Below are positions 13,610 through 31,387 of a stretch of DNA of 64,000 nt, one piece after another; the stretch's first letter is position 1, and each line of letters opens with the position of its first letter. This stretch comes from Cyanobacteriota bacterium. GTDB taxonomy: Bacteria; Cyanobacteriota; Cyanobacteriia; Thermostichales; Thermostichaceae. The position numbers and the translations under genes were made by a program. Location of the stretch: NCBI GenBank assembly GCA_033764955.1, contig JANRIL010000019.1, positions 96,001-160,000 of the forward strand, written 5' to 3'. The notes under the pieces were generated by a model, which worked only from the letters and a program-made list of their open reading frames with translations, made no database searches and had not been told where the DNA came from.

Positions 13610-15451
13610 ATGGCGATCCCTCCTGTTTTAGATGCTCCTGCCACCACTCCCCGCCTGCCCAGCGGAGCCTTGTCGGTACACCGATTGGATCCCCCCCTGC
13701 GCTACGACCCGACGGCTATTGCCCAGGAATATCGCGGCCAATACGGTCAGGTTTGGCGTCGCCTGTTTAGCCTGGTCTACCCGTTTGTGGCGCTGCTGGT
13801 GCAGGTGTTTTGGGATCGCCTGTGGGGACAAGAACACCAGCAACGACCTCGCCATGCCATCCGGTTGCGGGAAATTTTAACGGAATTGGGGCCAACCTCC
13901 ATCAAAATTGGGCAGGCGCTTTCCACCCGTCCAGATTTGGTCTCACCCCTCTTTTTGGAGGAACTGACCAAGCTACAGGATGAACTACCCCCCTTTGACA
14001 ATCAAATTGCTTTTGATTTGATCACCGCCGAATTGGGCTTGCCTCCCCACGAAATTTATCGAGAAATGAGTGCTCAGCCGATTGCTGCTGCCAGCTTGGG
14101 GCAGGTTTATCAAGCCTATCTAAAAACGGGAGAAAAAGTAGCGGTTAAAGTGCAAAGACCGGATCTGATCAAACATATCTCTATTGATATGTATATCATC
14201 CGCTCCTTGGCTGCCTGGGCAAAACGAACCTTTCCCAAAATTCGTAGCGATTTGGTGGGAATTGTGGATGAATTTGCCAGCCGTCTCTACGAAGAAATGG
14301 ACTATACCCAAGAGGGAGAAAACGCCGAGCGTTTTTTACAGCTTTATCGTCATCCTTCAATCTATGCCCCCAGAATCTACTGGCCTTACACGGGTCGGAA
14401 GGTCTTGACAATGGAATGGATTGACGGGATAAAACTTACCCAGTTGGAAAAAATTACGGCGGCGGGTTTGAATGGGCGGCAACTTATTGAAGTGGGGGTA
14501 AACTGTTCCCTCAGACAGCTTTTAGAAAATGGTTTCTTTCATGCGGATCCCCATCCTGGCAACCTATTAGCGATGCCCGACGGACGATTGGCCTACATTG
14601 ACTTTGGCATGATGAGTGCCATTCAACCTCATCAACGCTATGGATTGATCAAGGCGATTGTTCACCTAGTGAATCGAGATTTTTCGGGTTTAGCCCATGA
14701 CTATGTGGAACTTGAGTTCTTGACAAAAGACACTGATCTAACCCCTATCATTCCAGCTTTGGGTCATGTATTTGCCGAGGCGATGGGGGCAAGTGTGGCG
14801 GAAATGAACTTTAAGAGCATGACGGATAAATTGTCAGCGGTGATGTATGACTATCCATTTCGTGTACCTGCTTACTATGCCTTAATCATTCGCTCCCTGC
14901 TCACATTAGAAGGTATTGCCATCAGCTTGGATCCCAACTTCAAGGTGTTAAGCGTTGCCTATCCCTACGTAGCTGGTCGATTGCTGAGTGATCCGGCTCC
15001 TGAGCTACGCATTTCTCTCAAAGAATTGCTATTTGGTGAAGGACAATTTCGTTGGAATCGTCTAGAAAATTTATTGCGAAATGCCTCCAAAAGTGAAGAC
15101 TTCGATCTGGAGGGATCCCTAGAGAAAGTCCTGGATTTCATCTTCTCTGAGCGGGGAACGTTCCTGCGGGAAGGTTTGGTGGAGGCGATCTTTACCCCCA
15201 GCTCTTCCAACGGATCCCAGCCGCAGCAGGGCTGGCATCATCTGCAACGGGTCTGGCAACTCCTTTCGGAAAATCCCTCCTTTCAACCCCTCAACCTGTT
15301 GCCGGTGGTTGCTAAAGTTGCCACCAAACCAGAAGCTCAGCAATGGGGGCAGCAGTTGGCCTCGCGCTGGTTGCAGCGCTCGGCGGCTCAGTGGTTGCGT
15401 CAGTGGTTTGCTCCCGCCCAACTGCCTGCCTCTACCCTGCGAGATCCCTAA
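13610..15451 (+). CDS. ABC1/AarF/UbiB family atypical kinase
   Basis: LGPTSIKIGQALSTRPD, AAASLGQVY, VAVKVQRP, FFHADPHPGN, IDFGMM. Confidence 0.92.
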   Translation: MAIPPVLDAPATTPRLPSGALSVHRLDPPLRYDPTAIAQEYRGQYGQVWRRLFSLVYPFVALLVQVFWDRLWGQEHQQRPRHAIRLREILTELGPTSIKIGQALSTRPDLVSPLFLEELTKLQDELPPFDNQIAFDLITAELGLPPHEIYREMSAQPIAAASLGQVYQAYLKTGEKVAVKVQRPDLIKHISIDMYIIRSLAAWAKRTFPKIRSDLVGIVDEFASRLYEEMDYTQEGENAERFLQLYRHPSIYAPRIYWPYTGRKVLTMEWIDGIKLTQLEKITAAGLNGRQLIEVGVNCSLRQLLENGFFHADPHPGNLLAMPDGRLAYIDFGMMSAIQPHQRYGLIKAIVHLVNRDFSGLAHDYVELEFLTKDTDLTPIIPALGHVFAEAMGASVAEMNFKSMTDKLSAVMYDYPFRVPAYYALIIRSLLTLEGIAISLDPNFKVLSVAYPYVAGRLLSDPAPELRISLKELLFGEGQFRWNRLENLLRNASKSEDFDLEGSLEKVLDFIFSERGTFLREGLVEAIFTPSSSNGSQPQQGWHHLQRVWQLLSENPSFQPLNLLPVVAKVATKPEAQQWGQQLASRWLQRSAAQWLRQWFAPAQLPASTLRDP

Positions 15452-16446
15452 AGAGCCTGCGCCAGGATCTCTGCATCCACGTTGCCCCCTGACAGCACCA
15501 GTCCAACCCGCTTCCCTTGAATGGCTAGCTTGTGGGAGAGAAGCGCCGCCACTGCCACCGCCCCCGTTGGTTCGACGACCATCTTCATGCGATAAAGCAA
15601 AAACCGCATCGCCTGCAAAATCTCCGCATCGGAAACCAACAGCACTCCGTCCACCATCTGTCGAATCACCGCAAAGGTACACACTCCGGGATAGGTGGTG
15701 CGGATCCCGTCGGCAATCGTATCAGGCACAGGGATCCGCACCCGCTCTCCCTTTTGCAGGGATTGGTAAAAATCATCCCCAGTTTCTGGTTCCACGCCAT
15801 AGATCGTGATGGTGGGGTTGACGGTGCGAGCCACCATACTGCATCCGCTCAGTAACCCCCCGCCGCCCAGGGGCACCATCAATACATCCAGATCCGCCAC
15901 CTGCTGAAATAGCTCCAGGGCAACCGTTCCCTGTCCGGCGATAATTTGCCAGTCATCATAGGGAGGAATCAGGGTCAGCCCTCGCTCCCTGGCCAACTCT
16001 TGGGCGATCGCCTCGCGGTCTTGCTGTTGCCGATCATAATCCACGATCTCCGCCCCATAGCCGAGTGTGGCTTGCCGTTTGGCCTGAGGAGCATCGTTGG
16101 GCATGACAATTGTGGCCGGGATCCCCAGGGTTTTAGCGGCGATGGCGACCCCTTGGGAATGGTTTCCTGACGAAAAGGCCACTACCCCCCGCTCTCGCTC
16201 CCCTGTCCCCAATTGTAGGATCCGATTCATGGCTCCCCGCACCTTGAAGGATCCCCCCCGTTGGTAGTGTTCTCCCTTGAAAAAGCATTGATTATGGACA
16301 ATCTGGTCAAAAGTTCGACTGGTGAATAAGGGCGTGGGTTGGAGGAAGGGGGTGATCCGATTGGCGGCAGCCTCAATGTCGCGGATTGTCAGGGGAAGTG
16401 GAGCCGGACTATTGGTGAAGGGAGGAGAAACCGTCATTATCTTCAT
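15448..16446 (-). CDS. PLP-dependent serine/threonine dehydratase family (threo-3-hydroxyaspartate ammonia-lyase-like)
   Basis: QRGGSFKVRGA (PLP lysine), SSGNHSQG, GGGGLLSG, SGGNVD. Confidence 0.88.
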   Translation of the reverse strand: MKIMTVSPPFTNSPAPLPLTIRDIEAAANRITPFLQPTPLFTSRTFDQIVHNQCFFKGEHYQRGGSFKVRGAMNRILQLGTGERERGVVAFSSGNHSQGVAIAAKTLGIPATIVMPNDAPQAKRQATLGYGAEIVDYDRQQQDREAIAQELARERGLTLIPPYDDWQIIAGQGTVALELFQQVADLDVLMVPLGGGGLLSGCSMVARTVNPTITIYGVEPETGDDFYQSLQKGERVRIPVPDTIADGIRTTYPGVCTFAVIRQMVDGVLLVSDAEILQAMRFLLYRMKMVVEPTGAVAVAALLSHKLAIQGKRVGLVLSGGNVDAEILAQAL

Positions 16447-16449
16447 GGT

Positions 16450-16911
16450 TTAGTGAATAAACCGATCCAGGGCACGTTTCAGTTCTTCCAGCTCCATCTC
16501 AATATTGCCCGTCTCGGCGGCATGGACAATGCAACTGCTGATATGGTCATCCAAAATTAAGCGAGCCACCCGATCCAAAGCTCCCCTGACCGCCGCAATC
16601 TGCAACAGCACATCGGGGCAGGGCTGCCCTTCCGCAATCATTGAGCGGATCCCATGCACATGCCCTTCAATGCGCGCCATCCGATTGAGGAGCTTGCGCT
16701 GCGCTTCCGGATCATGCTGGTGGGCATGGGCACGTCCCGACAGGGGTGGGTTTTCTAGAGCGATCTCCAACTCATCTTGCCAGTCATCCTGGACAGACTC
16801 AGAACCGACCCGCGTATCGCGAGATTCTTGGGTGGAGACATGAGATGGCAGCGATGGGGAAAGGGGGGAATGAACGTGTTGATGGTGGGGGTTGCCAGAG
16901 AAGGTAGACAT
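16450..16911 (-). CDS. CsoR/RcnR-family metal-sensing repressor (InrS-like) with His-rich N-terminus
   Basis: RMARIEGHVHGI..M....PCPDVLLQIAAVRGAL...ILDDHISSC; N-terminal HHQHVH and HAHQH. Start taken at MSTF (16911). Confidence 0.88.
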   Translation of the reverse strand: MSTFSGNPHHQHVHSPLSPSLPSHVSTQESRDTRVGSESVQDDWQDELEIALENPPLSGRAHAHQHDPEAQRKLLNRMARIEGHVHGIRSMIAEGQPCPDVLLQIAAVRGALDRVARLILDDHISSCIVHAAETGNIEMELEELKRALDRFIH

Positions 16912-17259
16912 AAAAAGCAGGCTAGCCACTCTAAGGTAGTGGGATGAGCATCTCTCCATAGTCGAAAAGGAACTAAGGACAGACATTCTCCAGGCATCTT
17001 ATCTCAGATCCCCAGTGGGGTTGGAAAAGCGGGAGCGGCTCTTCCAATATCTCCAGAGGGATCCCTTAACCCATACTCCACACTATTTCACCATTCACAG
17101 CCGTAAAATCTAGGGAATTTCCCCCTTGCTATCAATTTGTAGTCCCTACGCGATCTCTCCTGTACAATTGCCTCAGTTATGGAAAGTAGGGCAATCTTGC
17201 CTAGCTAAGCAGTATGTTGAGTGGATTTCGCCCCGCCCTTTTTCTCGCGTGATTTGGTG

Positions 17260-18339
17260 ATGAATGGATTCTTGCCCTCCCTAAAACTGCTGAGTGTATT
17301 GGCATTCTGGGCATTGCTTAGCCCTCCTGTCTGCCTTGCCCAGTCTGATTTGCCGGTTCCTAATCCCGCCCAGCCCCGCCTCGATGTAGAGTTGCCCCAG
17401 CCCCAAAAACGCTACATCTTAGGTGCTGGAGATCGGGTGCAGATCAATGTCTTTAATGTGCCGGAGTTTACGGGCGAACAACAAATTTTATTGGATGGAT
17501 CGATTACCCTGCCACTGGTGGGATCCATCACCGTAGAGGGACTAACCCTACAGCAAGCCGCCGATGAAATTACCTTTCGCCTGTCGGCCTTTTTGGAGCG
17601 TCCCATTGTTAACGTGTTGCTGCTGGCAGCTCGTCCCCTGCGGATTGCCGTGATTGGAGAGGTCAACCGTCCGGGTGTTTATACGCTACCCAGTGGCACC
17701 TCCACGACGACGGCAGGAGCTAACCAGCCCAGGATCCCCACCGTCAGCGAACTCATTCAGACGGCAGGTGGCATTACCCAAACGGCTAACATTCGCAACA
17801 TTCAAGTCCGCCGCCCTCAAATTGGTTCGACCGGGGTCAACCAGAGTTTTACCGTTAATCTTTGGGACGTGTTGCAGGGAGGGGATCCCCAAAAAGATTT
17901 GCTCTTGTTTGATGGCGACTCGGTGTTTATCCCCACCGTCGTGGATCTGGCTGCCGAAGAAGCCAGCCAGCTAGCCAGTGCCAACTTTGCTCCCGATGAA
18001 ATTGCCGTCAACGTTGTGGGGGAAGTGGTCAACCCTGGGCAACTGCGCCTCACCCCCAATGCCACCCTCAATGAGGCGATTCTGACGGCGGGAGGACTCA
18101 ACCAGCGGGCGGATCCCAACGCTGTTGAACTGATTCGCCTCAATCCCAACGGCAGTGTTTCCCGACAGGAGGTGGTGGTGGATTTCAGTCAAGGCTTGAA
18201 TGCCCCCCAAAATCCCGCCCTGCAAAATACGGATATCATTGTCGTCAAGCCGACGGAATATGTGCAGGCTTCCGATAGCTTCGAGCTTTTTATAAGTCCT
18301 CTCCTCAATATCAGCAATGCCCTGCGTATTTTCCGTTAA
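17260..18339 (+). CDS. Polysaccharide export protein (Wza/OPX, SLBB domains)
   Basis: Signal peptide, YILGAGDRVQINVF, DGSITLPLVGSI, VIGEVNRPGVY, and a second SLBB motif VVGEVVNPG. Confidence 0.9.
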   Translation: MNGFLPSLKLLSVLAFWALLSPPVCLAQSDLPVPNPAQPRLDVELPQPQKRYILGAGDRVQINVFNVPEFTGEQQILLDGSITLPLVGSITVEGLTLQQAADEITFRLSAFLERPIVNVLLLAARPLRIAVIGEVNRPGVYTLPSGTSTTTAGANQPRIPTVSELIQTAGGITQTANIRNIQVRRPQIGSTGVNQSFTVNLWDVLQGGDPQKDLLLFDGDSVFIPTVVDLAAEEASQLASANFAPDEIAVNVVGEVVNPGQLRLTPNATLNEAILTAGGLNQRADPNAVELIRLNPNGSVSRQEVVVDFSQGLNAPQNPALQNTDIIVVKPTEYVQASDSFELFISPLLNISNALRIFR

Positions 18340-18430
18340 TTCCCTTGCCTTCCGTTGACTGAAGATCCCATGAATTGGATCCCGTAAACAACCCCCATCC
18401 CTAGCTCCCGTTCTGTACCCCGTGACACCT

Positions 18431-20743
18431 ATGGCTGATACTATTCTCGAAAAGCCAGATTATCTCAGTTCGGCTGGCCCAGAAGCTGAAATCAATATGA
18501 TGCGAGCCTTGCGGCGGCATTGGCTAGCTGGCTTAGGAACAGCGGTAGCGATGGTATCGGGGGTGGCTTTCTACACCAACTCACAGGTGCCCATCTATCA
18601 ATCTGAAGCGCTCATTTTGCTAGATACCCAGTCGGCAATTCCGGTGGTGGATTTATCTACTTCAGCCACGGTGGGCAGTTCCAAAGATCGCTCCACAGAA
18701 GTAGAAATTTTGCGAAGTCGCCCGCTAGTGGAACGAGCGGTGGCGGATTTGATTACTGAGGATCCCACATTGACCGTTGGACAGGTATTAGGAGGGCTTT
18801 CGGCTCGACAAATTGAACGTTCGGATATCTTGCGAGTCACCTACAAAGATACGGTTCCTGACCGCATTAAAAAAGTCTTGGATGCCCTGGGATCCACCTA
18901 CGTGGACTACAGCTTAGAGAGCAAACGCTCTCAGGCTACGAACGCCATTCGCTTTATCGAAGAACAACTGCCGGTGGCGCGCGCCGCTCTCGATACCTCA
19001 GCCGCGGCTATCCGTGACTTTCAAGAAGCCTATGGAATTGTTAACTTTGATGCTTATGCCACAGGCGTAGCCGATGTCGCCCAAGCCCTAGCTACCCAGT
19101 CCCTGCAAGCCAAGATTCAGTTGGAACAAACCCGCCAGCAGGAACAGGAAATCCTGGAGCAAATTCGCCAACTGGGGCAGGATCCCTCCACCCTCATGCA
19201 GCAATCCCTGCTCAGCCAAAGTAGTAGTTACCAAGAGCTAGCCAAACAATTACAAGAGATCGATATTCAGTTAGCCCTAGAACGGGTGCGCTTTCGAGAT
19301 GACTCCCCCACGGTTTTAAGTTTGAGTAATCGTCGCCGTAATCTGGAAAATCTCCTCAAACAGGAGGCACTCAGTATTTTGCAAGGCACAACCCCCGTGG
19401 CGCTTTCTCCGGAAGTGGGATCCTCTACTCCCACCTCCGTCCCCCTGCTACGGGATAGCCTGACGACTCCCCCCCTAGCCACTGCCGGATTGCCTGCTAC
19501 CCCTACTAATGCTGGAACCACTGAAAGTCTAGCCGGGATCCCGGATTCCGGATCCCTGCAACAGAGTCTGATGGCCGAACTGCTGCAAGCCCAAACCAAC
19601 CTGGCGGTTCAATCGGTACAAGTCCTCAGCATCAATCAAGCCGAAGTCGAAGTGGCTAGCCGCCTAGAGCAGATCCCTTCTCTCCAGAAAGCTTATGTTG
19701 AGCTGGTGCGGCAAAATCAGGTGGATTCAGCGGTGGTTAACAACTTTCTAGAAAAACTACAAAACCTCCGCATTACCGAAGCGCAAGAGACCTCCCCCTG
19801 GCGCGTCTTGCAACCCGCCATTACCCCAACCACTCCCATCTCTCCTGACTTAAGGCGCAACTTAGTCCTGGGTTTGATGGCGGGCGTATTAAGTGGTCTG
19901 GGGATTGCTCTTTTGTTGGAGAGTATTGATCACCGCATTAAAGATGTGGAAGAAGCTCGCGCCCTAACGGGTTTACCGCTGTTGGGGGCGGTGCCGAAGG
20001 TGACAAGCGAAATTTTGTCAGGGGTGATTCACAACAACGACTACACTCCATTTACCGAAGCCTTCCGGTCAATCGCCGTCAGCATGGGCTATCTGGGAAC
20101 CGCCGGACAGATCAAAACCCTCTTGTTAACCTCGGCAATTCCTTCAGAAGGGAAGTCAACGGTCAGTTTTTGTTTAGGGATGGCTCTGGCGGATTTAGGA
20201 CACCGCGTCCTGATTGTGGATGCGGACATGCGTAAGCCAGGCATCCACGGTCTGCTCAATCAGCCTAACGCCCAGGGATTGAGCAGTGTGATTGCCTCAG
20301 ATCGCCCTTGGCCTTCCCTGATTCACCTCTATTCGGATCATCTGCATGTCTTGACGGCAGGTCCAGTTCCCCCCAATCCGATTGCCCTCTTGGGTTCCTC
20401 CAAGATGACGCAGCTTTTGGCCGAGTGGCGACAACGATATGACTATGTGTTAGTAGATACGCCACCCGTTTCTGGGATCGCGGACGCCCAAAGTATTGCC
20501 AATCAAGTAGATGGTGTGGTCTATGTCTTGGGCATAGAACGTTCCGATCGGCAAATTATTGCGAGGGCCTTAGAACTACTCAAAAGCACCCAGGCAAATT
20601 TGGTGGGTATGGTGGTCAATCTTGTGGATGCCAAACAAAATGCTTACCACTATCGCTACTACACCGCCTACTATGGCAAGCCTTCCGACCAAAAGAAAAC
20701 GACAAGTCGAGCGACATCTAGCCGCTTGAAGGAGAATTCTTAA
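18431..20743 (+). CDS. Polysaccharide co-polymerase / BY-kinase (Wzc/GumC family)
   Basis: Two TMs around a coiled coil, Walker A SAIPSEGKST, VDADMRKP, Walker B VLVDTPP, C-terminal Tyr cluster AYHYRYYTAYY. Confidence 0.92.
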   Translation: MADTILEKPDYLSSAGPEAEINMMRALRRHWLAGLGTAVAMVSGVAFYTNSQVPIYQSEALILLDTQSAIPVVDLSTSATVGSSKDRSTEVEILRSRPLVERAVADLITEDPTLTVGQVLGGLSARQIERSDILRVTYKDTVPDRIKKVLDALGSTYVDYSLESKRSQATNAIRFIEEQLPVARAALDTSAAAIRDFQEAYGIVNFDAYATGVADVAQALATQSLQAKIQLEQTRQQEQEILEQIRQLGQDPSTLMQQSLLSQSSSYQELAKQLQEIDIQLALERVRFRDDSPTVLSLSNRRRNLENLLKQEALSILQGTTPVALSPEVGSSTPTSVPLLRDSLTTPPLATAGLPATPTNAGTTESLAGIPDSGSLQQSLMAELLQAQTNLAVQSVQVLSINQAEVEVASRLEQIPSLQKAYVELVRQNQVDSAVVNNFLEKLQNLRITEAQETSPWRVLQPAITPTTPISPDLRRNLVLGLMAGVLSGLGIALLLESIDHRIKDVEEARALTGLPLLGAVPKVTSEILSGVIHNNDYTPFTEAFRSIAVSMGYLGTAGQIKTLLLTSAIPSEGKSTVSFCLGMALADLGHRVLIVDADMRKPGIHGLLNQPNAQGLSSVIASDRPWPSLIHLYSDHLHVLTAGPVPPNPIALLGSSKMTQLLAEWRQRYDYVLVDTPPVSGIADAQSIANQVDGVVYVLGIERSDRQIIARALELLKSTQANLVGMVVNLVDAKQNAYHYRYYTAYYGKPSDQKKTTSRATSSRLKENS

Positions 20744-21065
20744 GGCTTAAATTTTTAGCGATTAAAATAGGGATCCCGGCCTTTTACTCCCCGCCTAACG
20801 CTACTCAGCCAAAAATGCTTAAGGATCATCATTGCAAAAATCTATACCAGGGTCTAGTGTGGATCTAGTCTGGATCTTGTGGAAAGACTTGAGTTCCCTG
20901 TGGTGCTGCACGATAGATTGAATAGTTTCCCAGATTTTCTCGATCTGGCTATAGCTTTGGTGCAAAATTACTTAGGAACTACCTTCCACCTCTATGGAAT
21001 ATGCATTAGTAATTGACTCTTGGCCAACTGTTTGTCAAGTTTCCTTTTTTGAACAGTGGCAAGAA

Positions 21066-21566
21066 ATGCTGTCTAGTCTATTTCGTGGAGATAGGCTGGG
21101 TAAACAGGCGGCTTATCGGAAGCGCATGACCACTGTGGACTGGGTGATCCCGGGTAAGTTGGCGGTGGGATCCTTACCTCGTCCTGGTGACAGTGCTATC
21201 CTGGCGAAAGCGAAAATTCAAGTCATCTTTTCCCTTTGTGCCCCAACCGAAGGCTCCTTACCACCGGATGTTCGCAAGCAGTTTTACTGTGGCAATTTAG
21301 TCTTGCCCGATAGCCACTGGAAGCACCCGATTCGGGTTGAGCAGTTGCGGCGGGCTGTCGAAGTGGTGCATCGAAGCGTTGAGAAAAATATGCCCATTTA
21401 TGTGCATTGTTTAGCGGGCATCGAGCGCTCCCCATTGGTTTGTATTGCCTATCTGTGTTGCTATCAAAACCTGCAACTGCAAGATGCCCTTACCTGGGTT
21501 AAACAGGTGCATCCACGCACCATGCCCACTCGTGATCAACTGAATGTTATTAAGCAGTTATTGTGA
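21066..21566 (+). CDS. Dual-specificity (CX5R) protein phosphatase
   Basis: YVHCLAGIERS catalytic loop; N-terminal WVIPGKLAVGSLP. Start is 21066 or 21126. Confidence 0.85.
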   Translation: MLSSLFRGDRLGKQAAYRKRMTTVDWVIPGKLAVGSLPRPGDSAILAKAKIQVIFSLCAPTEGSLPPDVRKQFYCGNLVLPDSHWKHPIRVEQLRRAVEVVHRSVEKNMPIYVHCLAGIERSPLVCIAYLCCYQNLQLQDALTWVKQVHPRTMPTRDQLNVIKQLL

Positions 21567-21740
21567 ATTTCCTGACTGCCCAGCGGGTTTGATTGCCGCC
21601 TTGAATCTAAAGAACTTTGGAAGTTGTGGTAGAGCTAACCATGCCTTTAATGGAGAATCAGCTAAGCTATCCCTGGTGGGTTCTACTCCCTATCAATAAG
21701 GGTTTGAGCCGGTTCTCAACGACAATCAGGACAGGAATCT

Positions 21741-21878
21741 ATGGCAAACTTCAATCGTGGCATCATGCGATTTGCTGGAGCCGATAGCCCTCTAGCAATA
21801 GCCCTCTCCACAGGGGTTGTGATAGGTGTTGTGGGATCCTTAATTTGGTGGGCGCTGCATTCTGCCTACAGTCTTTAG
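21741..21878 (+). CDS. ndhQ: NDH-1L small subunit NdhQ (45 aa; absent from the ORF track)
   Basis: Hand translation MANFNRGIMRFAGADSPLAIALSTGVVIGVVGSLIWWALHSAYSL. FNRGIM.F.GADSP and LIWWALH.AY match NdhQ as I recall it. Single TM; AGGA upstream. Confidence 0.88.
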   Translation: MANFNRGIMRFAGADSPLAIALSTGVVIGVVGSLIWWALHSAYSL

Positions 21879-21905
21879 CCCCTCTGACTCCCCCTTGCCC
21901 CTCCG

Positions 21906-23003
21906 ATGTGGACTCCTGAGCAACAGCAACGTCTGCGTCATCGGCTTTTGGATTGGTATGGGCAGCAGGGCAGAGATCTGCCGTGGCGACACACCAGGGA
22001 TCCCTATGCCATTTGGGTCTCTGAGATCATGCTGCAACAAACCCAGGTGACAACGGTTTTGCCCTACTTTCAGCGCTGGTTAGAGCAACTCCCCCACATC
22101 CAGGACTTAGCTGTCGCTGCTCCGGCTCAGGTACTCAAGCTCTGGGAAGGGTTGGGCTATTATCGACGGGCACGCTACCTCCAGCAGGCGGCTCAGCAGT
22201 TAGTCGCCGAACGACAGGGAGTGTTTCCCACCACTTTGGAAGAAGCGATGGGATTGCCGGGGATTGGTCGCACCACAGCGGCGGGGATCCTGAGTGCTGC
22301 TTTTGATCGACCGCTCCCTATTCTGGATGGTAATGTCAAGCGGATATTGGCTCGTTTGGGGGCGTTGCCGGTTCCTCCCCGCAGGGCAACTCGGCAGCTT
22401 TGGCAATGGTCGGAGACTTTATTGGATCGGCAGCATCCCCGCGACTTTAACCAAGCTCTGATGGATTTGGGGGCGCTGATCTGTCGTCCCCGACAGCCTC
22501 ACTGTAGAGAGTGCCCTTGGCAAGAGGATTGCACCGCTTACAATCACAGACAGCAAGATCACTATCCTATGTCTGAACCCACCCCACCCCGCCCCCACAA
22601 AACCATTGCTGTTGCCGTCGTTTGGCAAGGGGAGCAGTTGCTCATTGATCAACGGTTGGAAAGTTCGATGCTGGGGGGCTTATGGGAATTTCCGGGGGGG
22701 AAGATTGAGGAGGGAGAAACGGCGGCGGAATGCGTCGTGCGGGAGGTGAAAGAGGAAATTGGCATTGATGTGGTGGTGGAATCGGCGCTGACCACTATCG
22801 ACCATGCCTACAGCCATTTTACGATTACGCTCATTGCCTTCATTTGTCGCTATGTGGCGGGAGAAGCGCGGGCGTTGCAATGCAGTGATGTGCGCTGGAT
22901 TTATCCTTCTCAACTGAGTGAGTATGCCTTCCCTTCTGCCAATCAAAAACTTTTTCCGGCTCTCTACGAATGGCTGAACACCCAATCCTCCAGTACCTCT
23001 TAA
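21906..23003 (+). CDS. mutY: A/G-specific adenine glycosylase MutY with C-terminal Nudix (MutT-like) domain
   Basis: RDLPWR, WVSEIMLQQTQV, WEGLGYYRRA, HhH LPGIGRTTA, LDGNVKR, FeS motif CRPRQPHCRECP..C, and a Nudix box. Confidence 0.95.
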   Translation: MWTPEQQQRLRHRLLDWYGQQGRDLPWRHTRDPYAIWVSEIMLQQTQVTTVLPYFQRWLEQLPHIQDLAVAAPAQVLKLWEGLGYYRRARYLQQAAQQLVAERQGVFPTTLEEAMGLPGIGRTTAAGILSAAFDRPLPILDGNVKRILARLGALPVPPRRATRQLWQWSETLLDRQHPRDFNQALMDLGALICRPRQPHCRECPWQEDCTAYNHRQQDHYPMSEPTPPRPHKTIAVAVVWQGEQLLIDQRLESSMLGGLWEFPGGKIEEGETAAECVVREVKEEIGIDVVVESALTTIDHAYSHFTITLIAFICRYVAGEARALQCSDVRWIYPSQLSEYAFPSANQKLFPALYEWLNTQSSSTS

Positions 23004-23129
23004 TTCAGACTGATGACCACTTTTTTTCTGCTGGTTGAGACCCTCTGCCCGGAAGGGTGTCATTGCAGATTTTGTTCACAAAGACGGAACCACAACTATT
23101 TTGTATAGGCAAGTTGGGGCGAGGAATCG

Positions 23130-24311
23130 ATGAAATCATATGACTGGATCGTGGTAGGCGGCGGCATCACCGGAAGTTTGCTGGCCTATCATTTGGTTCG
23201 CCAACCATCCCGTGTTTTATGGCTGGAAAAAGATGTATCCCTGCGGGGAGCCAGCCGCTATAGCTATGGTGGATTTAGTTATTGGGCGGCCAAAACCCCT
23301 CTGCAACAGACCCTCGCCCAACGGAGTTTTGATCGCTATTTTGAGTTGCAAGACGAATTGCCAGAGAATTTCCGACTGCGCTTGCTTGACTTGGTCATGC
23401 CCATTTTGCCGGGATGGGATCCCCAGCAGGTGCTAGCCATGCACGCCGATATGCGGATCCCGCCCCAACTGATTGATGTTCCGTCGGCTTGCCAATTGGA
23501 GCCGCTCCTCAACCCAACCGCCTTTGATGCCGCTCTCACCGTTCAGCACGGCCACCTTCATCCGGGACGATTGGTCAAAGCTTTGCAAGCTGCTTTCCAG
23601 GCGTTGGGGGGCGACGTGATCATTCAGCCCGTCACAGGTTTTTTGGGTCAGCCCAGCATCAGCGGTGTCACCACCCCAACCCACACCTATAGCGGATCGC
23701 AGGTAATTGTCTGTGCAGGTGGTTGGAGTCGGCAGTTGGTCAACCAAACGGGGTTGTCGATCCCCCTTTACTTCACCCATGCCGAGTCGATAGAAATTCC
23801 CCCTCCGCCTGACCTACACCTGCGGGCATTGGTCAACCCCATTCCCCTCAAGCGTTTTGACCTAGAAGCGGAGTCTTGTCGGCCTGAGAAAATCGGTTTG
23901 TGGGCAGCCGCGGGGCATGAGGCAGCGCCACCCATCCTGGATGTGGGGGCAGTGCCATTTGGAGAGGAGGGGATCCGCATCGGGCAGGTGAGCCGCACCT
24001 TGACGGATCCAGAGGCAAGGGTGGATCCCGTCAGCAGCGAGGCGGCCATGCGGCAGGGATTGCGCCCCTATCTTCCCAGCCTTGCCGATCTGCCGGGGCA
24101 GTGGTACGAATGTTTGGTGGCGTTTACGGCTGACCAGTTGCCCCTCGTGGGATCCCTCCAGCCGGGGCTGTCGATTTTTTCTGGATTTAGCAATCCACTG
24201 GCTACCGTACCCGCCCTAGCCGAGCGCTTTGCTACCCATCTCACCGCCGGAACGGTTGACCGGGATCCGCTGCTAGCACCGCTATCCCCCAGCCGCTTTG
24301 GCAAGGGGTGA
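23130..24311 (+). CDS. FAD-dependent oxidoreductase (DAO/glycine oxidase-like)
   Basis: YDWIVVGGGITG, GASRYSYG, VCAGGWS, FTADQLPLVG, LSPSRF. Confidence 0.85.
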   Translation: MKSYDWIVVGGGITGSLLAYHLVRQPSRVLWLEKDVSLRGASRYSYGGFSYWAAKTPLQQTLAQRSFDRYFELQDELPENFRLRLLDLVMPILPGWDPQQVLAMHADMRIPPQLIDVPSACQLEPLLNPTAFDAALTVQHGHLHPGRLVKALQAAFQALGGDVIIQPVTGFLGQPSISGVTTPTHTYSGSQVIVCAGGWSRQLVNQTGLSIPLYFTHAESIEIPPPPDLHLRALVNPIPLKRFDLEAESCRPEKIGLWAAAGHEAAPPILDVGAVPFGEEGIRIGQVSRTLTDPEARVDPVSSEAAMRQGLRPYLPSLADLPGQWYECLVAFTADQLPLVGSLQPGLSIFSGFSNPLATVPALAERFATHLTAGTVDRDPLLAPLSPSRFGKG

Positions 24312-24324
24312 GGATCCCCCCAGT

Positions 24325-26670
24325 TCAACAAGCCACTTCCGAGTCGAGATGAAAAGGGATCCGCACGGTAAAGGTGGTCTGGTTGTTTTCACTTTCGACA
24401 GCGATACTGCCATCCAAAAGAGAAACCCGTTGCTGAACCAGGGCTAAGCCTAATCCTGTACCCCCTTGCCGCCAGGGATCCGCATTGGGCACTCGATAAA
24501 ACTTCTCAAAAATATGGGGAAGCTCACGACTAGGAATTTCTACCCCCGTATTGCGGACAACAATCATCAAATGTTGTCTATTGGCGGTTACCTGCACAAA
24601 AATATCCTCATGAGGGGGGGTATATTTGCAGGCGTTGTTGAGCAGCTCGCTCAAAATTTGCTCCAGACCCAACGGCAGCGCATAAATTTGAGGCAAGTTT
24701 TGGGACAATTCGACGGTTAAGGTTTGTTGACGGCTTTGGGCACGGTCATAAAAGGGCTTGATAACCGTTGGGATCCAACTTTGTAGATCCATCTGCTGAA
24801 ATTGTTGGGGATCGGGATTGGCTTCCAATCGTTGCAGATCCAGCAGATCGTTAATCAGGCGAATTTCCCGCTCACATTCCTCCTGCAAAATTTGCAGATA
24901 ACGAGTGATTTTGGCAGCATCCTGCAAATGGGTTACCTGGGGATGAAGCAGGCTAGTCAGGAGTTGAATAGCCATCCGAATACTGGAAAGTGGTGTACGT
25001 AACTCATGGGAAACGGTACTCAAAAAGTCATTTTTGAGGGCATCCAGACGACGTAGTTCTATGACTTGAGCATTGAGTTGGGCGGTGCGATCCTGAACTT
25101 TGGCCTCTAAATCTTGGTTGAGGGTTTGGATTTGCCCAAACAGTTGACCCTGTTGAATGGCAATAGCTAACTGATCGGCAATCGCCTCCACCAGAACCTT
25201 TTCAGAATTGAGCCACTGTGCCGATAGATTTTCACTGGCTAAGGCTAAATATCCCCAAAAAGTTGTGGGGTTGGATTCAGAAATAGGTTGGGGGATCTGC
25301 GAACTCAGGGATAGGGGTACAAATAGAGAAGTCCTGGCCTTATCCATTAACCAATGGGGGGATGGTTGGGATCCCGTCTGCTGGATGAAGGTCATGGATT
25401 CATTACTACCAGAAGCTAATGACGGAAGACTCGCTTCTGCCGCTAAGAGAGTGACGATTTCAAACCGTTTGAGATGCTGGGTAATGGGATGGGGTTGATC
25501 GGGCAAAATAGAGCCTAATTCATCCAAATGACTGTGATGGCGGCGATAGTCGGCTCGATTGATCCAAACCGCTTGTTCGGGCAGATATTGGGCGATAATC
25601 ACCTGATCCACATGCAAAATTTGGCTAATGGCTGCCACAGCCGTTGAAAAGATATCTTCCAAATGCAGCGAGTTGCGAATGGCTTGAATGACTTGGTTGA
25701 GGGCACGTTCCCGTTGTGCCTGTTGCTGACTGTGCTGATAAAGTTGACTTTGTTGAATAGCACTTTCCACCTGAGATCCCAGGTTTTCCAAAAAGTGCAT
25801 CTGCCAGGAATGCCAATGGCGGGGATGCAGGTAGTGATGCACCACCAATAGACCCCAAAACTCCTCCCCCTGCATGAAGGGAAAACAAAGCAGCGACTTA
25901 ATGGGAGGGGCGATCGGGCTAAAAGGAATGTCAGCAAGAGGAGACTGAAACAGATCCGGTAGAGCATAGCTGCGTCCGGCCTGCAAATGGGGGAGCAGTT
26001 GTTGACACCACTCGCGGTTGAGGGAGGTTTGCAGGAGGCTGGGGTGCTCGGCCTGATGAGCCTCAGCAATCACAAGCGGGGATCCCTGCGGCCATTTACG
26101 ACAGATCAAGACACTATCCGCCTGCAAAAACTGCCGCACCTCTTGCACCGTCGTGGTCAAAATATCATTTAAATCGAGGGATTGACGAATATGAGCTGTG
26201 ATGGTGCTCAGCAGTTGTTCTTGGCGATTTTGTTGTTGCAGCGTTTCGAGGGTGCGACTCGCTTGGAGTAGCCGTTGCATCCGTTGTCGCAACACCGCCC
26301 AATGGATAGGCTTGGTCACATAATCGGCGGCTCCAGCGGCAAAAGCCCGATCCACCGAAACACTATCCTCCAAACCTGTGATCATCAAAACAGGGGTATT
26401 GTGGCTATTGGGCAGGGCTTTCAGGTGGCTACAACAGGCAAACCCGTCCATAACGGGCATGATGGCATCCAGCAGGATAATGTCCGGTTGCAACTGTTGA
26501 AAGAGTCGCAAACACTCCTCCCCATCAATGGCCTCGACAACGCGATATCCTTCCCCAGCTACCAGATGACGTAGCCATTGTCGCGTGACCCGATCATCAT
26601 CCACCAATAACACCAAGGGATCCATGGTGGGGGTGGGGGGTGGGATGGGGTCGAGGGTCTCTAGAAGCAT
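24325..26670 (-). CDS. Hybrid sensor histidine kinase (REC-GAF-GAF-HisKA-HATPase)
   Basis: LLVDDD...PDIILLDAIMPVMDG...YVTKP receiver; two IRxSL.L..I GAF domains; FLSTVSHELRTPL; ELLNNACKYT; GGTGLGL. Start uncertain. Confidence 0.9.
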   Translation of the reverse strand: MLLETLDPIPPPTPTMDPLVLLVDDDRVTRQWLRHLVAGEGYRVVEAIDGEECLRLFQQLQPDIILLDAIMPVMDGFACCSHLKALPNSHNTPVLMITGLEDSVSVDRAFAAGAADYVTKPIHWAVLRQRMQRLLQASRTLETLQQQNRQEQLLSTITAHIRQSLDLNDILTTTVQEVRQFLQADSVLICRKWPQGSPLVIAEAHQAEHPSLLQTSLNREWCQQLLPHLQAGRSYALPDLFQSPLADIPFSPIAPPIKSLLCFPFMQGEEFWGLLVVHHYLHPRHWHSWQMHFLENLGSQVESAIQQSQLYQHSQQQAQRERALNQVIQAIRNSLHLEDIFSTAVAAISQILHVDQVIIAQYLPEQAVWINRADYRRHHSHLDELGSILPDQPHPITQHLKRFEIVTLLAAEASLPSLASGSNESMTFIQQTGSQPSPHWLMDKARTSLFVPLSLSSQIPQPISESNPTTFWGYLALASENLSAQWLNSEKVLVEAIADQLAIAIQQGQLFGQIQTLNQDLEAKVQDRTAQLNAQVIELRRLDALKNDFLSTVSHELRTPLSSIRMAIQLLTSLLHPQVTHLQDAAKITRYLQILQEECEREIRLINDLLDLQRLEANPDPQQFQQMDLQSWIPTVIKPFYDRAQSRQQTLTVELSQNLPQIYALPLGLEQILSELLNNACKYTPPHEDIFVQVTANRQHLMIVVRNTGVEIPSRELPHIFEKFYRVPNADPWRQGGTGLGLALVQQRVSLLDGSIAVESENNQTTFTVRIPFHLDSEVAC

Positions 26671-26904
26671 CGATAGCTGGAGATATGGAGGAACCTGCTG
26701 AGCAGGATCAAGCAGCAGCCCATGTTGAGAAACACGAACTGTATCTATTTTCAACCGCGAAATGGCTGGGCGCATCCTGATTTCTACTACAGAAACCGAT
26801 CAATTGGTTGCTCTGGAGTTACAAGAGTCTGGAGGCACAACCTCCCGCACAAACTAGGACGTTCTTCCCCTTGTTCCCCACTCCTTCCCCACCGCATCTG
26901 TTCT

Positions 26905-26992
26905 GGGCAACACCCCAAATCAGCGGTGGCTAGTAGCCTTGGTAACCCAACCAACTATCTTTATACCGTCCGCTGCATTTGGATTATTAGAC
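26905..26992 (-). other. Integron attC recombination site (88 bp)
   Basis: Minus strand: R'' GTCTAAT - AATCCA - L'' AATGCAGC - GGAC ... CACC - L' GCTGATT - TGGGGT - R' GTTGCCC. Arms CCAAAT(G)CAGCGG(A)CGG / CCACCGCTGATTTGG pair with two extrahelical bases. Starts 18 nt after the stop of the upstream minus-strand gene. Confidence 0.8.
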
Positions 26993-27010
26993 CTTGCGCA
27001 AAGACATCAT

Positions 27011-28117
27011 TCATAGTATTACCGCTTCAACTGGTCGCCGTAGTGATCGCTGAGTCTCAGTACCATATCCAAAACGGACAACTAGATCTGGTCTGAGATC
27101 ACCAATGCCAAGATAAGTAGCGAATTGTGGACGTAATGATAAAACCTCAACTGGCTGGTTCAAAAATGCATTTTTTATGCCTAGTGCAGTTGCTTGCAAG
27201 GCGAACCGCTCGTAACATCGTCCTGTTTCAACCCAATGTTCCTTATCGTTACGCTCAGACACAAATACAGCAATCCCCGCAGAGGTACGAATGTGTTTAG
27301 CATATTTGTCGTTTTCACTCTTGGTTGTAAAAAACAAATTCAACAATCTCATCCCCAGCCAGCGAGGAACAATAGGATTTCCTGACGAACCAGCAAATAG
27401 CCCATCCCTTTTGCTCAAGACTTCGTCATGGCTGAATCTAATCCAAGATTTCAGTTCCTCAACAAAGGCTCGATCATTCATCTGCGCTGTATTACCCTGA
27501 ACAACATACTCCAGGATGTTCTCAATTTGGGCTTTTTCGGTGATCAGCAATATCCTGACCCCATTGCCCTGCCCTGTCGCTTCAAGGGAGGCTAAATCAG
27601 CGGTGCTTAATTTTCTACCGTCATACTCAACTCGACTGCATTGACGTTGAGGAATCGCATTAAAAAGGTCAGAAGATATTATTTTTGAGGGTTCTAAGGT
27701 GACTTTCACCCTGTCATCAACAGAATCGAAATGTGCAAATCCGTGCTTGCCAAATGCCTGTGCCGCTTGAATCAGATTTTCGGCAGCACAGCCTAAACTC
27801 ACAAACAAATGATGGTCATCAGGATCAACAGCAGGGCATCTCCGTGCCCAGTCTGGCAAAATTGAAATGGTTTGATCTGCAATCGTGAATTTCCAGCATT
27901 GCGTATTATGACTCGACGCAGCTAAGGTAGCGTAGCGAACCAGTTCATGATTGACTGCTATCAGGTCGTTCGTTGAGTTATCTAAGGTATGTCGCCAAGT
28001 ATCACGGACGGTATTGTTGTATCGACCGTTAGACTGATGAGCAGTTCCTATTGCATATGTCATTGCTCCTCCCGTCAGTGCAGTAAGACCTAAAATAATT
28101 TGTCTTCGACTCAGCAT
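27011..28117 (-). CDS. Acg-family FMN-binding nitroreductase-like protein with twin-arginine signal
   Basis: MLSRRQIILGLTAL Tat-like N-terminus; ATLAASSHNTQCWKF, VDPDDHHLFVSLGCAAENL, GRCYERFALQATALGI, LNQPVEV, RFGYG. Confidence 0.85.
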   Translation of the reverse strand: MLSRRQIILGLTALTGGAMTYAIGTAHQSNGRYNNTVRDTWRHTLDNSTNDLIAVNHELVRYATLAASSHNTQCWKFTIADQTISILPDWARRCPAVDPDDHHLFVSLGCAAENLIQAAQAFGKHGFAHFDSVDDRVKVTLEPSKIISSDLFNAIPQRQCSRVEYDGRKLSTADLASLEATGQGNGVRILLITEKAQIENILEYVVQGNTAQMNDRAFVEELKSWIRFSHDEVLSKRDGLFAGSSGNPIVPRWLGMRLLNLFFTTKSENDKYAKHIRTSAGIAVFVSERNDKEHWVETGRCYERFALQATALGIKNAFLNQPVEVLSLRPQFATYLGIGDLRPDLVVRFGYGTETQRSLRRPVEAVIL

Positions 28118-28127
28118 CAGTAAACCC

Positions 28128-28544
28128 TCAGTCTGAAACTTGGAGTGATACCCTACGGATTTTTGCAGCGATGAGCGGGGATAGCATTAACCAGACTAAG
28201 CCAATAGGCATTAAGCCACCTTGCAACAAATTATAGTCAGCACCGATTTGCTGCCATGAATAGCCTAAGACAAAAAAACCCAGACTAATCTCGAATACGA
28301 CGGTTAGCAGCAGCCACAGTATACCAATGCCCAAAAGTTGGGAAAAGTGCGATACATGAAGCCATCGGATAAATAACGTGGCGATCATCAACACCAATAC
28401 TGATCCAATAGCAAATGAAACTTGATGAGCAAGAGGATCACCCAGAAATGGCACTAGGCAAAAGATCCGAGCAGCACCATTTAAGCTCTCCACAAGAATA
28501 AATACAAGCCAAATCACAATGCTTTTCAGGATGATTATGGTCAT
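28128..28544 (-). CDS. Hypothetical small membrane protein (about 4 TM)
   Basis: 138 aa with four hydrophobic segments (motifs NGAAR, LTVVFE, DYNLLQGGL); 10 nt upstream of the Acg gene. Confidence 0.75.
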   Translation of the reverse strand: MTIIILKSIVIWLVFILVESLNGAARIFCLVPFLGDPLAHQVSFAIGSVLVLMIATLFIRWLHVSHFSQLLGIGILWLLLTVVFEISLGFFVLGYSWQQIGADYNLLQGGLMPIGLVWLMLSPLIAAKIRRVSLQVSD

Positions 28545-28665
28545 ATGTCATGTCCTTACAACCAAAGTGCCCTCTAGCTATGAGAGTAAAACTGAAAACT
28601 GAGTAACTTGTGAGAAATTCTTGCGATTATAATTCCGATCAGTTGGTTTCGGTCTAACAAAGCGG

Positions 28666-29631
28666 TTAAGCGGGGAAAAGGGTTTGGAGCACCTGAGCGG
28701 GCAAAATAGAGGTAATCTTTTGATCGGCAGCCCGCACCCAGCGATAGGGGCCTTGGGAGGGCAGGAGGCGATGGGGATCCGTTGGGCCAAAGAGAGCCAG
28801 CAAAGGGGTTTGGGTGGCAACGGCTAGGTGCATGGGGGCGCTATCGGTGCAGAGGAGCAGGGTGGCTCCGGCGATCATGCCCGTCAGTTGACTGATCTGG
28901 CGAGGACGGGTTAGGTAGAGATCCGGTTGCCGATCCAAAAAGGCTTGGGCTAGCTCCTGATCCTCAGGGCCAATCAACAGAACCATCGGCAGCTCAGGCC
29001 GTTTTTTCTGAAAGCCCTGCATGATCTCTAGCCAACGCTCCACCGGATAAATCTTTTGAATACCCTTGTTGATGGAGATCTGACTGGCTCCGGGATGGAT
29101 CAACACATAATCAGACTTGTCGCCAAACAAACGCTGCCGCTCCTGTTCACACCAATCGAGAGCCGGCTTTTTGAGGCGAATTTGCGGTAGGGGAGTGGTG
29201 GTAGCCCCCGGAAATCCTTGCAGCAGATCCGCATACATACTCGCGGCATACTGCTCCTCTTTGAGGGGGACTGCATCCGTTAACCACGGACCTGTTGTTT
29301 GTCCATAGCCCACCCGCTTGGGGATCCCGGTCAACCAGAGCAGCAGCTTCAGCCCCCAGGAACGCCCTAGACTGACAACCCCGTCATATTGCCGCTCCCG
29401 AATCCGCCCCAAGAGATCGCTGAGATCCCCCAAAGACACCTGTTCCTTAAAGGCAAAGGTGAGGACACGATCCACGGAAGGACAGACCTCATAAGCCCCC
29501 GCCGCTCGTGGTTCCACCATCACCTCGATTTCCGCCTGGGGAAACCGTTGCCGCAGCCCCGCCAGTGTGGGAAAAAATAAGATCTGATCGCCGATTCCAC
29601 CGGGAACAAGGGCTAAAATACGCTCGTGCAT
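28666..29631 (-). CDS. Glycosyltransferase family 9 protein
   Basis: LVPGGIGDQILFFP, LIHPGAS, CTDSAPMHLAVA..TP..ALFGPTDP. Confidence 0.9.
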   Translation of the reverse strand: MHERILALVPGGIGDQILFFPTLAGLRQRFPQAEIEVMVEPRAAGAYEVCPSVDRVLTFAFKEQVSLGDLSDLLGRIRERQYDGVVSLGRSWGLKLLLWLTGIPKRVGYGQTTGPWLTDAVPLKEEQYAASMYADLLQGFPGATTTPLPQIRLKKPALDWCEQERQRLFGDKSDYVLIHPGASQISINKGIQKIYPVERWLEIMQGFQKKRPELPMVLLIGPEDQELAQAFLDRQPDLYLTRPRQISQLTGMIAGATLLLCTDSAPMHLAVATQTPLLALFGPTDPHRLLPSQGPYRWVRAADQKITSILPAQVLQTLFPA

Positions 29632-29845
29632 GGGGTTGACCTGCGTAAGAGAGATCAGGAACGTGGCCGAGGAACAGGACTTAGGCTAATTATGAGCTTA
29701 ATTATGAATGGGATCAGGAATTAAGGATAATTAAACTGGCCGATTTCGCGGATGCTGAGTTAAGTATTTCTGCTGTGACGGCTGAATAACCTTAACTATT
29801 GTAACGGCTTCAGTCCCTGGATCATCCTTATTCTCCCCAGTCTGC

Positions 29846-30994: not shown

Positions 30995-31001
30995 CTTGTC
31001 T

Positions 31002-31098
31002 GCCTAACGCCCTGCCGCTCAGCCGCGAGCGGCGGGCGCGGCTGAGAGAAGGAGTCTAATGCAACTCGCCGCTTGTCGGCTGCAGCGGCTGGTTAGGC
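31002..31098 (-). other. Solitary attC-like site (97 bp)
   Basis: Minus strand: R'' GCCTAAC - CAGCC - L'' GCTGCAGC - CGAC AAGCGGCG ... CGCCGCTCG CG - L' GCTGAGC - GGCAGGGC - R' GTTAGGC. Two extrahelical bases; outer 9-bp perfect inverted repeat CTGCCTAAC/GTTAGGCAG. Confidence 0.78.
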
Positions 31099-31387
31099 AG
31101 GGCGAGGCTACAGACTAAGCTCGACCCGCAGGGCTACACCGAAGGCTATATTGATGCCACTATTTGTGACATTTTCTCTGCGTTTTGCCACAAAACCCCC
31201 TTTCTGAAAAATCGGGGGTGGTAGCTGAGCGGTGGTTTTGTTATCCTGTCGCTAACACTTGCTCATCGTGCCCTCAAACCCTCACCTTGAGAGGCATACA
31301 GCAAATTTCATCAGCGTTGGGTAGAGTGTCTTCCCCCGTTGATTGTGCGTTAAATGGCAGGCAATTTCAGGCTTGGAGAAAAGCGCC

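Follow-up and report, generated by a model that had tools for sequence, protein, structure and literature searches.

A complete integron cassette at a plain chromosomal site behind a glycosyltransferase gene, probably placed there by a resident integrase

How does a segment that looks like an integron gene cassette come to stand alone among ordinary chromosomal genes? The question is raised by a stretch of 64,000 nucleotides from contig JANRIL010000019.1 of a Cyanobacteriota bacterium (family Thermostichaceae), hereafter the window, in which two open reading frames (ORFs) and an attC-like site lie between a GT9 glycosyltransferase gene and a hybrid histidine kinase gene. A sequence-only reading had described this segment as a complete cassette inserted by an integrase acting in trans, and on rereading the sequence we find its segment boundaries, two ORFs, attC and motifs all in place. 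Positions 26911..28657 are a complete integron cassette. It is probable, though short of certain, that a resident integron integrase (IntI) inserted it at a plain G|TT 8 nt past the GT9 stop codon, producing a SALIN (a single attC site with no integrase nearby) by attC x attG recombination; we infer the integrase-mediated event, the exact target and the expression of the cassette. Cassette, attC, GT9 gene and kinase gene are all read on the minus strand, and coordinates are those of the window. The parts of the cassette and its left junction are as follows.

26911..28657, minus strand: integron gene cassette, 1747 bp, from TTAGACC through the G of R'.
26911..26993, minus strand: attC site, with R'' at 26993..26986, L'' at 26982..26970, L' at 26926..26915 and the G of R' at 26911.
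28658..28668, minus strand: left junction, made up of the GT9 stop codon TAA (28668..28666), 7 nt and the G at 28658.
28545..28657, minus strand: cassette leader of 113 nt, starting with TTAGACC, complementary to R'' GGTCTAA, and kept from its first base in L010, a homologous locus in another genus.

The segment is recognised as a cassette by its attC site and by homology that starts exactly at its first bases. R'' (GGTCTAAT, 26993..26986) is followed by a spacer AAT and by L'', which has an unpaired G at 26976; a 43-nt centre separates L'' from L', after which come a spacer GGT, the G of R' and TTGCCC (26910..26905). R' starts with 5'-GTT-3' (GTTGCCC, 26911..26905) 3 nt past L', the spacing seen in the resident attC family, and the model positions of the unpaired G at 26976 and of an unpaired A at 26969 also match those of that family. 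All attC models were built from other attC sites of the same genome, leaving the candidate out. A sequence profile of 9 attC sites from intI-linked arrays, run against the whole genome with nhmmer, gave the candidate 57.7 bits (E 2.3e-15 over the whole genome) among 78 matches at E ≤ 0.01, and a second-round profile of 49 sites gave it 54.5 bits among 86 matches. A covariance model of 20 other sites, with the R''/R' and L''/L' helices written into the alignment by hand, matched it over its full length (1-93/93) at 58.9 bits (E 7e-13), the best match in the window; this check bears out the claim of a complete cassette. In the 20-site hairpin 79.4% of cells are paired, versus 27-48% when the partners are slid, compensatory (both-sided) changes occur in 13 of 22 pairs, and the covariation score was reached by 0 of 500 shuffles. 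RNAalifold applied to the same alignment recovered 6 pairs only and was rejected, so the structure is the one supplied by hand. An Rfam scan of 26400-29000 with E up to 10 returned no attC family match and two chance matches (mir-766 and snoR114). Folded as single-stranded DNA, the attC has weak z-scores of -1.3 and -1.9, and hairpin energy alone does not distinguish the site. Its sequence is 78.7% identical over 75 nt to an in-array site (C9:6469-6540), and its arms are of the commonest resident type.

The extent of the cassette can be read from its homologues. Of the 30 relatives searched, a single one, G010, from another genus of the family, matched the cassette, with 90% identity over 1678 nt; the host flanks matched G010 at only ~69%, on another contig. 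The pairwise alignment to this locus (L010; 1516/1679 identical) begins at GTTAGACC, that is at window 28658 (G|TTAGACC), and ends just past R'', at window 26981, inside the attC. There the unit is part of an array: the preceding attC ends ...AACG|TTAGACC and a further attC lies upstream. A longer locus (L029) has four co-oriented attC sites by the covariance model, an array of at least 4, with the unit between the last two (2919-3010 and 4664-4757), and at L064 the oxidoreductase gene is followed by an attC of 39.3 bits (covariance model). The attC regions of the window, L029 (4664-4757) and L064 (1199-1290) have a common centre and different L''/L' arms, mutually compensated, and past L' all similarity among the three is gone. 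Because the L010 alignment starts at G|TTAGACC and similarity is lost after L', the left boundary is known to the exact base, and the right one lies no more than a few bases from R'. In the window the start TTAGACC (28657..28651) directly follows the host G at 28658, with no attC remnant between it and the GT9 stop codon. Since its attC arms are of the commonest resident type and the copies in other genera carry other arms, the likeliest source of the cassette appears to be the resident cassette pool. The difference in attC arms across the three homologous cassettes, with the window's arms being the commonest of its own genome, looks like within-genome homogenisation of attC sites. The homologous gene pair also occurs in two cyanobacterial records (L030 and L031) where no attC is detectable.

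The sequence-only reading had further proposed that the first bases of the cassette are complementary to the cassette's R''. TTAGACC and GGTCTAA are complementary at 7/7 positions, and over a wider box at 7/9. The 7-mer alone is weak evidence, because it has 4 copies on both strands of the 64-kb window versus 5.25 expected; on the minus strand there is one. We examined the rule, cassette start equals reverse complement of own R'', in 24 neighbouring array attC pairs of the genome. Matches of at least 8/9 were found in 12/24, versus 3.9% of random pairings, and of at least 7/9 in 16/24, versus 13.9%. The rule thus holds in this genome; the candidate itself stands at 7/9. In 8/24 pairs the match is 6/9 or less, so the mismatched R' that had been taken as a sign of a cassette locked in place is normal for a recombined cassette.

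Base composition separates the cassette from its surroundings in the same way. GGATCC occurs 11,709 times in the 3.8-Mb genome (~12.6x expectation, a copy every 325 bp) and 199 times in the window, and works as a marker telling host DNA from cassette DNA: 39 of the 86 attC matches lie within GGATCC-free gaps of at least 1500 nt, which make up 7% of the genome. G+C fraction (GC) and GGATCC density are as follows.

Window cassette: GC 0.439, GGATCC 0.
Six cassette arrays: GC 0.43-0.47, GGATCC 0-1.0 per kb.
GT9 and DegT genes: GC 0.55, GGATCC 3.86 per kb.
Histidine kinase gene: GC 0.50, GGATCC 2.45 per kb.
Whole genome: GC 0.48-0.54 per contig, GGATCC 3.08 per kb.

The window's largest GGATCC-free gap (26618-28775) spans the cassette, and only 44 of 11,661 gaps in the genome reach 2090 nt. 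Local GC is 0.42-0.455 in the cassette versus 0.52-0.58 in the flanks. The composition of the cassette is that of the genome's cassette arrays and the flanks are host-like; the cassette was rightly described as AT-richer than its flanks and free of GGATCC.

The enzyme for an insertion would have to come from elsewhere in the genome. A TIGR02249 search found no intI in the window, no intI with attI adjoins the cassette, and the nearest other resident-family attC is 38,734 nt away, so the earlier statement that the window holds no integron platform stands. Searching the genome for intI revealed two intact genes above the TIGR02249 cut-off of 265: C9:19-960 (463.2 bits), which shares a contig with the window and lies ~122 kb away, and C38:63588-64529 (451.4 bits). 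Both are open frames with no internal stops; seven further TIGR02249 matches are weaker or broken. Cassette arrays adjoin both intact genes (C9:1.2-8.5 kb and C38:53.3-63.5 kb). Fragments of intI and small clusters of attC are found at C36, C4, C30, C38:182.6k and C27. The genome is therefore predicted to encode integrases able to act in trans. Integron integrases are common family-wide, with a match above the cut-off in 10 of 23 genomes, many matches being broken. The two resident integrons also have in common a 243-nt region upstream of intI (77% identity; L001, C9:961-1203, and L002, C38) with a perfect 15-nt inverted repeat; the similarity breaks off at TAG|TTAG, which marks the attI crossover in either integron. 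The left junction of the window cassette is unlike this attI, where the homology ends TAG|TTAG.

The insertion locus itself consists of two host genes and the inferred target between them.

28666..29631, minus strand: GT9 glycosyltransferase gene (PF01075), the upstream host gene, co-oriented with the cassette.
24325..26775, minus strand: hybrid histidine kinase gene (receiver-GAF-HisKA-HATPase), the downstream host gene.
26902..26910, minus strand: TTGCCCAGA, the part of the inferred target to the right of the crossover, which has CAGA at +6..+9.

In the 10 loci of relatives that were compared, GT9 has orthologues of 68-73% amino-acid identity, and because GT9 aligns to its last residue (321/321) in relatives, its stop codon is native. 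The crossover G|TT sits 8 nt past this stop codon, and 135 nt separate it from the kinase start codon. The adjacency of GT9 and DegT is kept in 6 of the 10 relatives' loci. Other genes nearby encode MutY, Wza/Wzc-type exporters, UbiB and a threonine-dehydratase-like protein.

We propose that a single cassette left the resident cassette pool and was inserted in trans by a resident integron integrase, the folded bottom strand of its attC recombining with the double-stranded chromosomal G|TT behind GT9. The left product would be the host G followed by the cassette's TTAGACC, and the right product the attC's G followed by the host TTGCCCAGA; both junctions would be explained because the crossover lies between G and TT. 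As the cassette has no recognisable promoter and lies behind GT9 in the same direction, its two genes would most likely be transcribed by read-through from GT9. According to a preprint (10.1101/2022.09.11.507474), an attG site recombines at 5'-GWT-3' and has, on its right side at +6..+9, the motif 5'-CRGM-3', whose consensus is CAGA. At the left junction of the reconstructed target G precedes TT and at the right junction TT follows G, which fits 5'-GWT-3', and CAGA (26905..26902) lies exactly at +6..+9 and fits CRGM. The CAGA match is consistent with the attG route rather than strong evidence for it.

Several observations weigh against this account. CRGM follows 1.9% of the GTT sites in the genome, so the match may have arisen by chance. 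As a general rule of this genome CRGM is ruled out, since it is found at 2/48 terminal attC flanks. The motif was also defined for IntI1 in E. coli and not for these integrases (10.1101/2022.09.11.507474). On expression, the consensus scans show no terminator between GT9 and the cassette, but promoter and terminator counts are no higher than in shuffled sequence, so that the scans are uninformative. The attC itself departs from the usual form: canonical R'' boxes read RYYYAAC and end in 5'-AAC-3', and the candidate R'' ends in T. This departure, which had been read as locking the cassette in place, occurs in 8 of the genome's 79 attC sites with a callable R'', three of them inside arrays (C9:6464, in the intI-linked array of C9, C27:113075 and C30:21363), and nothing marks the cassette as immobile. 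The L064 homologue has A where the candidate has T. A solitary resident-family attC at C9:161726-161811, 1.7 kb past the window end, also has a T-ending R'' (38.9 bits).

The predicted empty site was not seen either. The relatives compared are of other genera, at ~70% protein identity, with none of the same genus; no empty site was found in 30 of them, none had GT9 next to the kinase, and in six extended loci the kinase is never beside GT9 (0/6). A 25-nt pattern of the predicted junction, allowing up to 3 mismatches, had 0 matches in 23 family genomes. Metagenome contigs with a GT9 protein yielded two loci whose partial matches to the protein have 22% and 54% identity; neither is a close relative, and no empty site was found there. 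For window 24300-31000 no sequencing run is listed. The empty junction forecast by the sequence-only reading has thus found no counterpart in any of these sets. Its proposal of insertion by an integrase in trans fares better, with two integrases in the genome and G|TT and CAGA in the reconstructed target, although the insertion event was not seen. In two of the six extended loci (L022 and L024), GT9 is followed within 0-13 nt by a homologue of window 15448-16446, which in this genome lies ~12 kb further on in the same orientation. Compared with L022 and L024, this ~12-kb interval is, judged by gene order, a lineage-specific rearrangement or insertion of host-like composition; window 15448..28666 holds the kinase, a DAO-family oxidoreductase, MutY, Wzc and Wza besides the cassette. 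The right flank seen today may be a later addition, and the predicted junction may never have existed as such. Two orders of events are conceivable: the cassette would have entered the present GT9-kinase spacer, or it would have entered behind GT9 before a rearrangement.

At 31000..31102 (minus strand, like the cassette, and 2.3 kb upstream) the covariance model gives a weak second attC-like match, of 25.6 bits and E ~5e-4. Its R'' CTGCCTAAC pairs with R' GTTAGGCAG at every position and its L box has the same unpaired G. It has a GC of 0.69 and occupies the spacer between the DegT stop codon and a HEAT-repeat gene; the DNA adjacent to it is host-like, not cassette-like. It has no sequence relative in the genome and nhmmer does not detect it. 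It could be a real orphan attC or merely a GC-rich hairpin. With it, the standard 4-kb clustering rule might give a two-site cluster instead of a single site, a further point against a SALIN.

The cassette might alternatively be a fragment of a former array, separated from its integron by rearrangement or by decay of neighbouring cassettes, and not a single-cassette insertion. The genome has many small attC clusters and intI fragments, rearrangement and loss of intI are listed as origins of attC clusters by Cury et al. 2016 (PMC4889954), the synteny around GT9 differs from that of relatives, and the weak match at 31000..31102 also speaks for this origin. We nonetheless consider this origin unlikely: the left junction is the native host stop codon plus 8 nt, without attC remnant, both flanks are GGATCC-rich host DNA with conserved orthologues, and the nearest resident-family attC is 38.7 kb off. 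The match at 31000 itself is GC-rich, without sequence relatives in the genome and with no cassette-like DNA adjacent. A different history is suggested by L022 and L024, where GT9 precedes the homologue of 15448-16446: the cassette could have been inserted behind GT9, and a rearrangement, possibly by IntI between attC and a secondary site, could then have brought in the kinase block, so that the predicted empty junction never existed. Imprecise excision of genome-inserted cassettes does rearrange the chromosome, according to the preprint (10.1101/2022.09.11.507474). The relatives are of other genera, however, at ~70% protein identity, and a rearrangement unrelated to the cassette would look alike; moreover, any split of GT9 from its neighbour must break in the same intergenic space, so the coincidence of the breakpoint with the cassette carries no weight. 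We regard a later kinase-block rearrangement of this kind as improbable too.

Finally, the two genes could be native to the locus, which would then be the birthplace of the cassette, a chromosomal pair that gained an attC. Such pairs do exist without a detectable attC in L030 and L031, yet the composition of the segment is the cassette pool's and not the host's, its attC is of the commonest resident type, and the genes are not at this locus in 22 family genomes. Its first 7 nt, complementary to its own R'', are the footprint of an earlier excision and circularisation. A native origin is very unlikely on these grounds, and insertion of a single pool cassette by a resident integrase remains the reading that we favour.

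If resident integrases inserted this cassette, did they insert others? The genome has 86 attC-like sites, of which 44 have no other within 4 kb, 35 of these 44 lying >4 kb from a contig end. Among 25 solitary sites of at least 30 bits, 10 have an exact 7-mer "start" 150-4000 nt upstream, versus 4.6 ± 1.7 with permuted R'' boxes (maximum 12 in 200 permutations). These 10 sites give 11 candidate starts. Five sites have a G before the start, zero GGATCC, low GC and host-like flanks (C1:44991, C5:77215, the window cassette, C18:33075 and C28:79190); the other six candidate starts have none of these features and look like the chance expectation. The left junction reads TTG|TT in 4 of the 5 (C1:44991, C5:77215, C28:79190 and window 28658), the fifth (C18) following an apparent attC remnant. 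In this small sample (n=4), TTG|TT is a possible target preference of the resident integrases.

On the right side, a 20-nt motif, G|TTAT(C/G)GAATTG(A/G)TNA(C/T)AGA, directly follows the G of R' at six attC sites in six loci (L129-L134: C4:15557, C11:33788, C23:45268, C27:18905, C27:112546 and C7:103493). The covariance model confirms five of these attC sites, and the sixth was recognised by eye; past the 20 nt no similarity is left among the loci and their DNA is host-like. The genome has no other copy of the motif, 0 of 22 family genomes have it, and no common left half was found within 7 kb upstream of five of the loci. The motif may form one half, the right one, of a dedicated secondary attachment site, and hints at one of a kind not described. 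Given that about half of the 86 sites are solitary, that at least five intact single cassettes sit at G|TT, and given the TTG|TT junctions and the 20-nt motif, we tentatively suggest that the integron of this lineage may routinely seed cassettes across the chromosome besides stockpiling them. The window cassette would then be one snapshot of a genome-wide route of domestication in which cassettes land behind host genes and are expressed by read-through, a broader reading that we hold less likely than not to be correct.

The cassette carries two genes.

28128..28544, minus strand: ORF 1, 138 aa, hydrophobic, with about four membrane-spanning stretches by eye.
27011..28117, minus strand: ORF 2, 368 aa, an Acg-family flavin mononucleotide (FMN)-binding oxidoreductase of the nitroreductase fold.

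ORF 1 has no Pfam or NCBIfam match and belongs to no named family; its Atlas matches are to "hypothetical membrane protein" clusters only, and its partner in L010, L029 and L031 is 83% identical. ORF 2 matches NCBIfam NF047509 at 290.9 bits (cut-off 199) over profile positions 1-319 of 319, and PF00881 at 30.5 bits. Its N-terminal SRRQ motif resembles, as we take it, a twin-arginine translocation (Tat) signal. The ORF 2 stop codon is 17 nt from the start of the attC. A gene for the small membrane protein adjoins an Acg-family oxidoreductase gene in distant phyla too (L041, L042, L085 and L104; Proteobacteria and Acidobacteriota; 39-49% identity), although in L041, L042 and L104 it lies 3' of the oxidoreductase gene and not 5'. 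Judging from this gene neighbourhood, the membrane protein and the oxidoreductase probably work together.

The finding leaves knowledge of the mechanism unchanged and is a well-resolved case of a known phenomenon. Integrons in Cyanobacteria, attC clusters without an integrase and single attC sites are already in print, as Cury et al. 2016 attest (PMC4889954), and the preprint describes both SALINs and the attG route (10.1101/2022.09.11.507474). Integron integrases have been shown in the laboratory to insert cassettes nearly anywhere in a genome. What the present case adds is a cassette found in nature whose two junctions are resolved to single bases; the donor integrases still reside in the genome, a homologue survives within an array of another genus, and the host's abundant GGATCC tells cassette DNA from host DNA. 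It indicates that the route is also used beyond the Proteobacteria, here probably by a cyanobacterium, suggests that a promoterless cassette could gain expression by landing behind a host gene, and gives a defined pair of attC and target that can be tested with the resident integrases.

Among known systems, the cassette most resembles the SALINs and attC x attG insertions of the preprint: one cassette with one attC, no integrase nearby and a non-att chromosomal site, a G|TT that fits 5'-GWT-3', a CAGA that fits CRGM, and a place behind a resident gene where read-through could express it (10.1101/2022.09.11.507474). It differs from the IntI1 cases in E. coli described there in being natural, in a probable cyanobacterium that has its own non-class-1 integrases, and in lacking a before-and-after pair; unlike the rule given there, the right motif is not general in this genome (2/48 flanks). 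Like the CALINs (attC clusters without an integrase) of Cury et al. 2016, it carries attC at a distance from any integrase while IntI is encoded elsewhere in the genome, whereas a CALIN needs at least 2 attC sites and here there is one clear site and a doubtful second at 25.6 bits (PMC4889954). With the cassettes of sedentary chromosomal integrons, namely the genome's own C9 and C38 arrays and the L029/L010 array, it has in common the attC family, the R''/R' logic and the composition, and in L029/L010 the corresponding two-gene unit is an array cassette of 90% nucleotide identity. Unlike such cassettes, it has no neighbouring family attC, attI or intI within the window, and its flanks are conserved host genes. 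Insertion of cassettes by IntI at simple GTT-type secondary sites outside attI was reportedly described in the 1990s; those, unlike the cassette behind GT9, were plasmid-borne resistance cassettes.

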